Assembly (NCBI RefSeq): GCF_024502345.1 | Contig: NZ_JALDNN010000001.1 | Strand: one strand, 5' to 3' | From: Escherichia coli | GTDB taxonomy: Bacteria > Pseudomonadota > Gammaproteobacteria > Enterobacterales > Enterobacteriaceae | DNA length: 64,000 bases | Shown: piece by piece, positions 7,141-12,943 of the stretch | Layout of the letters: each line of letters begins with the position of its first letter | How positions within the stretch are numbered: the first letter of the stretch is position 1 | Program-made: the position numbers and the translations under genes | Notes under the pieces: generated by a model | The model's database searches: none | The model's input: only the letters and a program-made list of their open reading frames with translations | What the model was told of the DNA's origin: nothing

Positions 7141-8175
7141 ATGAGTAACGCGATTACGATGGGGATATTTTGGCATTTGATCGGCGCGGCCAGTGCAGCC
7201 TGTTTTTACGCTCCGTTCAAAAAAGTAAAAAAATGGTCATGGGAAACCATGTGGTCAGTCGGTGGGATTGTTTCGTGGATTATTCTGCCGTGGGCCATCA
7301 GCGCCCTGTTACTACCGAATTTCTGGGCGTATTACAGCTCGTTTAGTCTCTCTACGCTGCTGCCTGTTTTTCTGTTCGGCGCTATGTGGGGGATCGGTAA
7401 TATCAACTACGGCCTGACCATGCGTTATCTCGGCATGTCGATGGGAATTGGCATCGCCATTGGCATTACGTTGATTGTCGGTACGCTGATGACGCCAATT
7501 ATCAACGGCAATTTCGATGTGTTGATTAGCACCGAAGGCGGACGCATGACGTTGCTCGGCGTTCTGGTGGCGCTGATTGGCGTAGGGATTGTAACTCGAG
7601 CCGGGCAGTTGAAAGAGCGCAAGATGGGCATTAAAGCCGAAGAGTTCAATCTGAAAAAAGGACTGGTGCTGGCGGTGATGTGCGGCATTTTCTCTGCCGG
7701 GATGTCCTTTGCGATGAACGCCGCAAAACCGATGCATGAAGCCGCTGCCGCACTAGGCGTCGATCCACTGTATGTCGCTCTGCCAAGCTATGTTGTCATC
7801 ATGGGCGGCGGCGCGATCATTAACCTCGGTTTCTGTTTTATTCGTCTGGCAAAAGTGAAGGATTTGTCGCTAAAAGCCGACTTCTCGCTGGCAAAACCGC
7901 TGATCATTCACAATGTGTTACTCTCGGCACTGGGCGGGTTGATGTGGTATCTGCAATTCTTTTTCTATGCCTGGGGCCACGCCCGCATTCCGGCGCAGTA
8001 TGACTACATCAGTTGGATGCTGCATATGAGTTTCTATGTATTGTGCGGCGGTATCGTCGGGCTGGTGCTGAAAGAGTGGAACAATGCAGGACGCCGTCCG
8101 GTAACGGTGTTGAGCCTCGGTTGTGTGGTGATTATTGTCGCCGCTAACATCGTCGGCATCGGCATGGCGAATTAA
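7141..8175 (+). CDS. rhaT: L-rhamnose:H+ symporter, 344 aa
   Basis: [32 protein letters not shown]..., 10-TM permease; convergent with rhaR. Confidence 0.95.
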
Positions 8176-9020
8176 TCTTTCTGCGAATTGAGATGGCGCC
8201 ACTGGCTGGGCGTCATCCCGGTTTCCCGGGTAAACACCACCGAAAAATAGTTACTATCTTCAAAGCCACATTCGGTCGAAATATCACTGATTAACAGGCG
8301 GCTATGCTGGAGAAGATATTGCGCATGACACACTCTGACCTGCCGCAGATATTGATTGATGGTCATTCCAGTCTGCTGGCGAAATTGCTGACGCAAAACG
8401 CGCTCACTGCACGATGCCTCATCACAAAATTTATCCAGCGCAAAGGGACTTTTCAGGCTAGCCGCCAACCGGGTAATCAGCTTATCCAGCAACGTTTCGC
8501 TGGATGTTGGCGGCAACGAATCACTGGTGTAACGATGGCGATTCAGCAACATCACCAACTGCCCGAACAGCAACTCTGCCATTTCGTTAGCAAACGGCAC
8601 ATGCTGACTACTTTCATGCTCAAGCTGACCGATAACCTGCCGCGCCTGTGCCATCCCCATGCTACCTAAGCGCCAGTGTGGTTGCCCTGCGCTGACGCTA
8701 AATCCCGGAATCGCCCCCTGCCAGTCAAGATTCAGCTTCAGCCGCTCCGGGCAATAAATAATATTCTGCAAAACCAGATCGTTAACGGAAGCGTAGGAGT
8801 GTTTATCGTCAGCATGAATGTAAAAGAGATCGCCACGGGTAATGCGATAAGGGCGATCGTTGAGTACATGCAGACCATTACCGCGCCAGACAATCACCAG
8901 CTCACAAAAATCATGTGTATGTTCAGCAAAGACATCTTGCGGATAACGGTCAGCCACAGCGACTGCCTGCTGGTCGCTGGCAAAAAAATCATCTTTGAGA
9001 AGTTTTAACTGATGCGCCAC
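8172..9020 (-). CDS. rhaR: AraC-family activator RhaR, 282 aa from GTG start (a 312-aa form from ATG at 9110 is also possible)
   Basis: ORF track extends to 9194; the GTG at 9018-9020 gives [17 protein letters not shown]..., the RhaR N-terminus as I recall it, and sits 74 nt downstream of the rhaS stop. Confidence 0.85.
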
Positions 9021-9093
9021 CGTGGCTACCTCGGCCAGAGAACGAAGTTGATTATTCGCAATATGGCGTACAAATACGTTGAGAAGATTCGCG

Positions 9094-9930
9094 TTATTGC
9101 AGAAAACCATCCCGTCCCTGACGAATATCACGCGGTGACCAGTTAAACTCTCGGCGAAAAAGCGTCGAAAAGTGGTTACTGTCGCTGAATCCACAGCGAT
9201 AGGCGATGTCAGTAACGCTGGCCTCGCTGTGGCGTAGCAGATGTCGGGCTTTCATCAGTCGCAGGCGATTCAGGTATCGCTGAGGCGTCAGTCCCGTTTG
9301 CTGCTTAAGCTGCCGATGTAGCGTACGCAGTGAAAGAGAAAATTGATCCGCCACGGCATCCCAATTCACCTCATCGGCAAAATGGTCCTCCAGCCAGGCC
9401 AGAAGCAAGTTGAGACGTGATGCGCTGTTTTCCAGGTTCTCCTGCAAACTGCTTTTACGCAGCAAGAGCAGTAATTGCATAAACAAGATCTCGCGACTGG
9501 CGGTCGAGGGTAAATCATTTACCCCTTCCTGCTGTTCCATCTGTGCAACCAGCTGTCGCACCTGCTGCAATACGCTGTGGTTAACGCGCCAGTGGGAAGG
9601 ATACTGTCCGTCCTGCTCTTGTGGCAGCAACTGATTCAGCCCGGCGAGAAACTGAAATCGATCCGGCGAGCGATACAGCACATTAGTCAGACACAGATTA
9701 TCGGTATGTTCATACAGATGCCGATCATGGTCGCGCACAAAACAGACCGTGCCACCGGTGATGGTATAGGGCTGCCCATTAAACACATGAATACCCGTGC
9801 CATGTTCGACAATCACAATTTCATGAAAATCATGATGATGTTCAGGAAAATCCGCCTGCGGGAGCCGGGGTTCTATCGCCACGGACGCGTTACCAGACGG
9901 AAAAAAATCCACACTATGTAATACGGTCAT
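9094..9930 (-). CDS. rhaS: AraC-family activator RhaS, 278 aa
   Basis: [44 protein letters not shown]..., cupin + HTH. Confidence 0.95.

Positions 9931-12943
<3,013 letters not shown>

Follow-up and report, generated by a model that had tools for sequence, protein, structure and literature searches.

The rhaR start codon of Escherichia coli: comparative evidence for a GTG and a 282-residue protein

At which codon does translation of Escherichia coli rhaR begin? The question is raised by the window, the whole 64,000-nt stretch of DNA analysed here, in which the rhaR frame stays open across the spacer that precedes the gene and into the 3′ end of rhaS, its upstream neighbour. The ambiguity noted in the original prediction is a real one, as exact 312-aa and 282-aa translations have both been deposited in public databases. 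The analysis described below favors the shorter product: we place the probability that E. coli rhaR is translated from the GTG at position 9020, as a 282-residue AraC-family activator, at roughly 0.9.

The segment from 8100 to 10000 is E. coli chromosome and matches 5,423 of 5,426 complete E. coli genomes, with a top match of 99.8%. The gene context associated with the RhaR equivalog NF010025/PRK13500, in which rhaBAD is divergent from rhaS-rhaR and rhaT converges on rhaR, is present in the window. The features on which the argument depends are as follows:

7141..8175 (+): rhaT, convergent to rhaR
8172..9020 (-): rhaR coding sequence, with GTG start at 9020-9018 and TAA stop at 8174-8172; 282 aa, 32.4 kDa
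9018..9020 (-): rhaR initiation codon GTG; 77 of 80 species-level loci have GTG or ATG at the homologous position
9021..9093 (-): rhaS-rhaR spacer, 73 nt, non-coding by comparative tests and conserved in blocks
9028..9032 (-): Shine-Dalgarno (SD) sequence GAGGT, at -12 to -8 from GTG 9020; -7.2 kcal/mol with the 16S 3′ end
9094..9930 (-): rhaS, 278 aa, the upstream paralogue of rhaR in the rhaSR operon; TAA stop at 9096-9094
9108..9110 (-): upstream in-frame ATG of the 312-aa form, out of frame with rhaS and formed by the rhaS codons GAT|GGT
9111..9125 (-): small hairpin TTCGTC-AGG-GACGGG inside the rhaS 3′ end, adjoining ATG 9110 and including the SD-like AGGGA
10218 onward: rhaB, divergent from rhaS

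The stop codons of rhaR and rhaT overlap in the palindrome TTAA (8172-8175), and the annotated genes overlap by 4 nt. Two antisense ORFs lie within rhaR, at 8304-8669 (+, 121 aa) and 8676-9008 (+, 110 aa); they come from a mechanical listing and show no sign of being genes. By analogy with published work on the near-identical K-12 protein, RhaR would serve as the L-rhamnose-dependent activator of the rhaSR promoter.

Candidate start codons and their initiation signals

The longest ORF in the rhaR frame spans 8172..9194 (-) and, as given in the ORF listing, encodes 340 aa from GTG 9194. Further in-frame candidates are GTG 9131 (319 aa), ATG 9110 (312 aa) and GTG 9020 (282 aa). The original prediction described the frame as open for 340 codons, a figure that holds for the product beginning at the first available start; without regard to start codons, the frame comprises 359 codons, 77 of them upstream of 9020. 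Its estimate of an approximately 100-nt overlap between the long frame and rhaS agrees with the computed value of 101 nt, and the coordinates it assigned to ATG 9110, as the start of a 312-aa product lying inside rhaS, were borne out. This ATG is located 14 nt ahead of the rhaS stop. For GTG 9020, a 282-aa product was correctly predicted, and 73 nt (9093..9021) lie between it and the rhaS TAA.

The GAGGT upstream of GTG 9020 is the best properly spaced SD among all candidate starts. An SD-like AGGGA is found at -9 to -5 of ATG 9110, and when pairing with the 16S 3′ end is unrestricted the duplex energies at the two sites are similar (-7.8 kcal/mol for ATG 9110, -7.2 kcal/mol for GTG 9020). Requiring a gap of at least 5 nt between the pairing and the start codon leaves GTG 9020 at -7.2 kcal/mol, whereas ATG 9110 falls to -4.2 kcal/mol. 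The cost of opening the RNA is slightly lower around ATG 9110 (10.0 vs. 12.2 kcal/mol at GTG 9020), and ATG initiates better than GTG. Since both starts carry an SD-like motif, the earlier caution that sequence alone cannot decide between them was justified for the window taken by itself; it no longer applies once species are compared, as this comparison settles the conserved start.

The hairpin at 9111-9125 (-) is terminator-like in appearance and is followed by ATGGTTTTCT. The RhaS residues Arg-Gln-Gly-Arg constrain its sequence, and it is probably no terminator but incidental to conserved RhaS codons.

Conservation of the start and spacer across species

Loci carrying rhaR were collected at one genome per species; 80 were fetched and 79 were analysable, giving 80 counted loci with the window included. 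All but two carry an Enterobacteriaceae genus name or family label, and RhaR identity ranges from 70 to 98%. The rhaS stop was mapped in each locus, together with the counterpart of the codon at 9020. The homologous codon is GTG in 67 of the 80 loci and ATG in 10, and the remaining three, from two Superficieibacter and one other genus, have a GTG one codon downstream. An SD precedes the start in 76/80 loci, as GAGG at -10 to -12 in 65 and as GGAG in 11. In 71 of the 80, the spacer between rhaS and rhaR contains an in-frame stop, which in 39 loci is situated just 3 codons upstream of the start and is often the TGA of TGAGGT. Spacer lengths vary from 71 to 155 nt and are evenly distributed over the three phases (28/27/25 loci by length modulo 3). 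No reading frame connects the rhaS end with the rhaR start across the loci.

Only 2 of the 80 loci, the window and Escherichia sp. MOD1-EC7003, have an ATG at -90 with an open frame behind it. A further Escherichia locus, with 93% RhaR identity, has a 72-nt spacer, one base shorter than that of the window, and an in-frame TGA at -12; several Enterobacter-group species have an ATG at the same position in rhaS, but it is followed by stops. As a conserved gene model, the 312-aa form finds no support in the upstream ATG or the open frame over the 80 loci, nor in codon periodicity over the 58 loci described below. Shuffling the window's own spacer yielded a stop-free 73-nt sequence in 33% of cases, and the open frame in E. 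coli therefore needs no special explanation. Within E. coli, nearly all of 5,417 genomes share 98-100% identity at the junction, and four records fall at 90-95%; such uniformity leaves too few changes for a population-based test of selection on the extension.

Codon-position conservation was measured in the 58 loci with spacers of 71-74 nt. Coding flanks gave values of 0.95, 0.96 and 0.69 for positions 1, 2 and 3, versus 0.73, 0.77 and 0.72 in the spacer, which lacks periodicity. Conservation of the spacer is instead concentrated in particular columns: 22 of 73 are at least 90% conserved, as compared with 9-10 of the 60 third-codon positions flanking it. In the 58/80 species with spacers of this length, near-invariant blocks recur across genera in the order CGCGA, TCAMCGTTTTT, GCKAATAAT and GGTTATT, followed by the SD.

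What the blocks might do was approached in several ways. The spacer gave no Rfam match at E≤1 and RNAalifold predicted no pairs in it, and it was not assigned to a structured-RNA class. A 7-bp hairpin between the U-run and the A-run, named by hand, was weakly supported, with 73% of cells paired versus 69% in shuffles. A consensus scan of the spacer for an internal promoter detected none. A binding site for RhaR or RhaS, suggested by a motif match in the rhaSR promoter region, was rejected, as local alignment of the spacer to that promoter in nine species was no better than with shuffled sequences. That an A/U-rich translational enhancer for the GTG start accounts for the blocks would be a reasonable guess. 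The conserved spacer may be of interest for studies of the relative expression of RhaS and RhaR.

Several loci have altered spacers. In Citrobacter and Salmonella (L005, L006, L008-L012, L015-L018), the spacer is enlarged by repeats that, by eye, look like REP/BIME-type elements (gccggatg...). In three others (L007, L014 and L076, two of them from Citrobacter), ERIC-like ends (aagtatgacgggtat) were recognized, also by eye. These enlarged spacers span 88-155 nt. Most of these loci carry the insertion after the AATAAT block and ahead of the SD; the ERIC-like ends of L007 and L014 are near the 5′ end of the spacer. In E. coli NCTC9064 (NZ_LR134315.1), an IS1A adjoins the spacer approximately 50 nt upstream of rhaR, the match to the window picks up again 37 nt before the rhaR GTG (position 9057), and fdhD and fdnG are found beyond IS1. 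In this strain rhaS and rhaBAD appear to have been deleted, leaving a rhaR that appears promoterless yet is annotated as 282 aa.

Protein-level evidence and alternative forms of RhaR

On the 282-aa scale, conservation among RhaR orthologues sets in at residues 5-13, with L5, L7, K9, F12 and F13 invariant. Among database orthologues (Citrobacter, Salmonella, Enterobacter and others), a length of 282 aa prevails by far, with coverage of 88-90% of a 312-aa query. The NCBIfam RhaR equivalogs NF010025 and NF010027 both have 282 positions, and their alignment starts from residue 32 of the 312-aa form. For NF010025/PRK13500, the whole-protein score of 573.5 bits exceeds the cut-off of 525 and identifies the protein as RhaR; the match is end-to-end, with profile positions 2-281 of 282 corresponding to residues 32-311 of the 312-aa form, or 2-281 of the 282-aa form. 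On the 312-aa scale, the AraC_binding (cupin) domain PF02311 extends from 52 to 182 and the C-terminal double HTH, PF12833, from 229 to 305. In the paralogue, D8-F9-F10 of RhaS aligns with D11-F12-F13 of 282-aa RhaR. PDB entry 5U93, the RhaR N-terminal domain (residues 1-172 of the 282-aa form), begins MAHQLK and was crystallised without the extension. RefSeq K-12 b3906 (NP_418342.2) and PGAP annotation in four other E. coli genomes give 849 nt and 282 aa, and the K-12 RefSeq record was revised to version.2 with this length. The original choice of GTG 9020 is thus in agreement with RefSeq K-12, PGAP, the NCBIfam equivalogs, the PDB construct and the cross-species conservation of start, SD and upstream stops.

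Other lengths remain in use. RhaR is reportedly numbered on a 312-residue scale in the first sequence publication, of 1987, and in subsequent genetic studies, which would explain why both forms circulate. In keeping with this numbering, RhaR D276 on the 312-residue scale aligns with RhaS D241. Public databases also carry 288-aa versions from other strains; two of these (P0126 and P0131, from Shigella dysenteriae and E. coli) begin MAEVAT/MVEVAT at a codon equivalent to CTG 9038, where strain-specific changes presumably create a start codon. We found no experimental RhaR N-terminus and no initiation-site profiling of rhaR in the accessible literature and its supplements, and rhaR is not mentioned in the supplements of the tetracycline ribosome-profiling and TRAINSPOTTER N-terminomics papers.

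Could the 312-aa protein from ATG 9110 be the main or sole RhaR of E. coli, with the 282-aa annotation wrong in this species? Such a form would have an ATG start, an open frame and the historic annotation in its favor. We consider it extremely unlikely: the comparative evidence from start codon, SD, upstream stops and spacer argues against it, E. coli keeps the SD, the start codon and the spacing at 9020 unaltered, the 5U93 construct crystallised without the additional residues, and the K-12 RefSeq entry was itself revised to 282 aa.

A second alternative is dual initiation, in which most translation starts at GTG 9020 and some at ATG 9110, yielding a minor 312-aa (35.7 kDa) isoform in E. coli and its closest relatives. 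The upstream ATG would be used by ribosomes that have just translated rhaS or that load at AGGGA; its position 14 nt before the rhaS stop is a geometry compatible with termination-reinitiation, and its SD-like motif offers -4.2 kcal/mol at a usable spacing. The window, K-12, UTI89 and MOD1-EC7003 all have an open frame from ATG 9110, the 312-aa form is repeatedly produced by gene callers, and the reported 312-residue numbering, consistent with the D276/RhaS D241 alignment, is in line with such an isoform. Against this, the extension is conserved only in E. coli and MOD1-EC7003 and is matched by no family model; chance alone would leave the spacer open in about one third of cases; AGGGA and the ATG are both accounted for by RhaS coding constraints; and the site would be occluded by ribosomes elongating on rhaS. 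We regard dual initiation as quite unlikely. The species comparison leaves room for minor extra use of ATG 9110 in E. coli, which is possible but unsupported.

A broader proposal, also unlikely in our estimation, combines several of these elements. A change in the SD-to-start spacer would have eliminated, in E. coli proper, the in-frame TGA present in most relatives and thereby created the 30-codon extension, and occasional reinitiation after rhaS would turn it into a lineage-specific 312-aa proteoform whose N-terminal arm is extended. Independently of this, the spacer blocks would constitute an undescribed translational control element of rhaR, for instance an A/U-rich enhancer or a processing site.

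The reading we favor is initiation at GTG 9020. Ribosomes would load on the rhaSR mRNA at GAGGT, 7 nt upstream of the GTG and within the non-coding spacer, and initiate there independently. The 312/340-codon open frame would be a lineage-specific accident, in that E. coli proper lacks the in-frame stop found in most relatives, and the rhaS codons GAT-GGT happen to spell ATG. The start codon, the SD and the upstream stops are conserved, the spacer is without coding signal, and the family-model boundaries fit the 282-aa product; from these we infer that E. coli ribosomes use GTG 9020 exclusively or predominantly.

Reference annotation already uses the 282-aa start, and the ambiguity is an ordinary one that had already been resolved. 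What is contributed here is a clear comparative argument for that start, with little weight beyond annotation hygiene. Products of 312, 288 and 282 aa are still listed side by side for rhaR in public databases, and residue numbers shift by 30 between the 312- and 282-aa schemes, a possible source of confusion.

Comparison with known RhaR proteins and RhaS

The closest known system is RhaR of E. coli K-12 (b3906, NP_418342.2; PDB 5U93/5U9E), to which the window protein is 99.3% identical. K-12 shares with the window the rhaS-rhaR gene order, the convergent rhaT, the 73-nt spacer, the GTG start and the GAGGT SD. Differences are minor: a few substitutions distinguish the window from the PDB sequence, for example at residues 107 (S vs. 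N) and 108 (V vs. A) of the 282-aa form, and two synonymous changes in rhaS near the junction distinguish it from K-12.

The historic 312-aa RhaR, still present in GenBank/ENA/IMG, is the same gene in the same frame as that in the window, and its exact translation has been deposited. It differs by 30 additional N-terminal residues, which are absent from orthologues and lie outside the NCBIfam models. This extension is encoded by the non-coding spacer and by 17 nt of rhaS, including the stop codon.

RhaS and RhaR are 36% identical over 266 residues, and both contain AraC_binding and HTH_18 domains. Their genes differ in initiation signals, as rhaS has an ATG start with an AGGAGG SD, while rhaR, second in the operon, has a GTG with GAGGT. 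If RhaR begins at GTG 9020, the N-termini of the two paralogues match within 3 residues.
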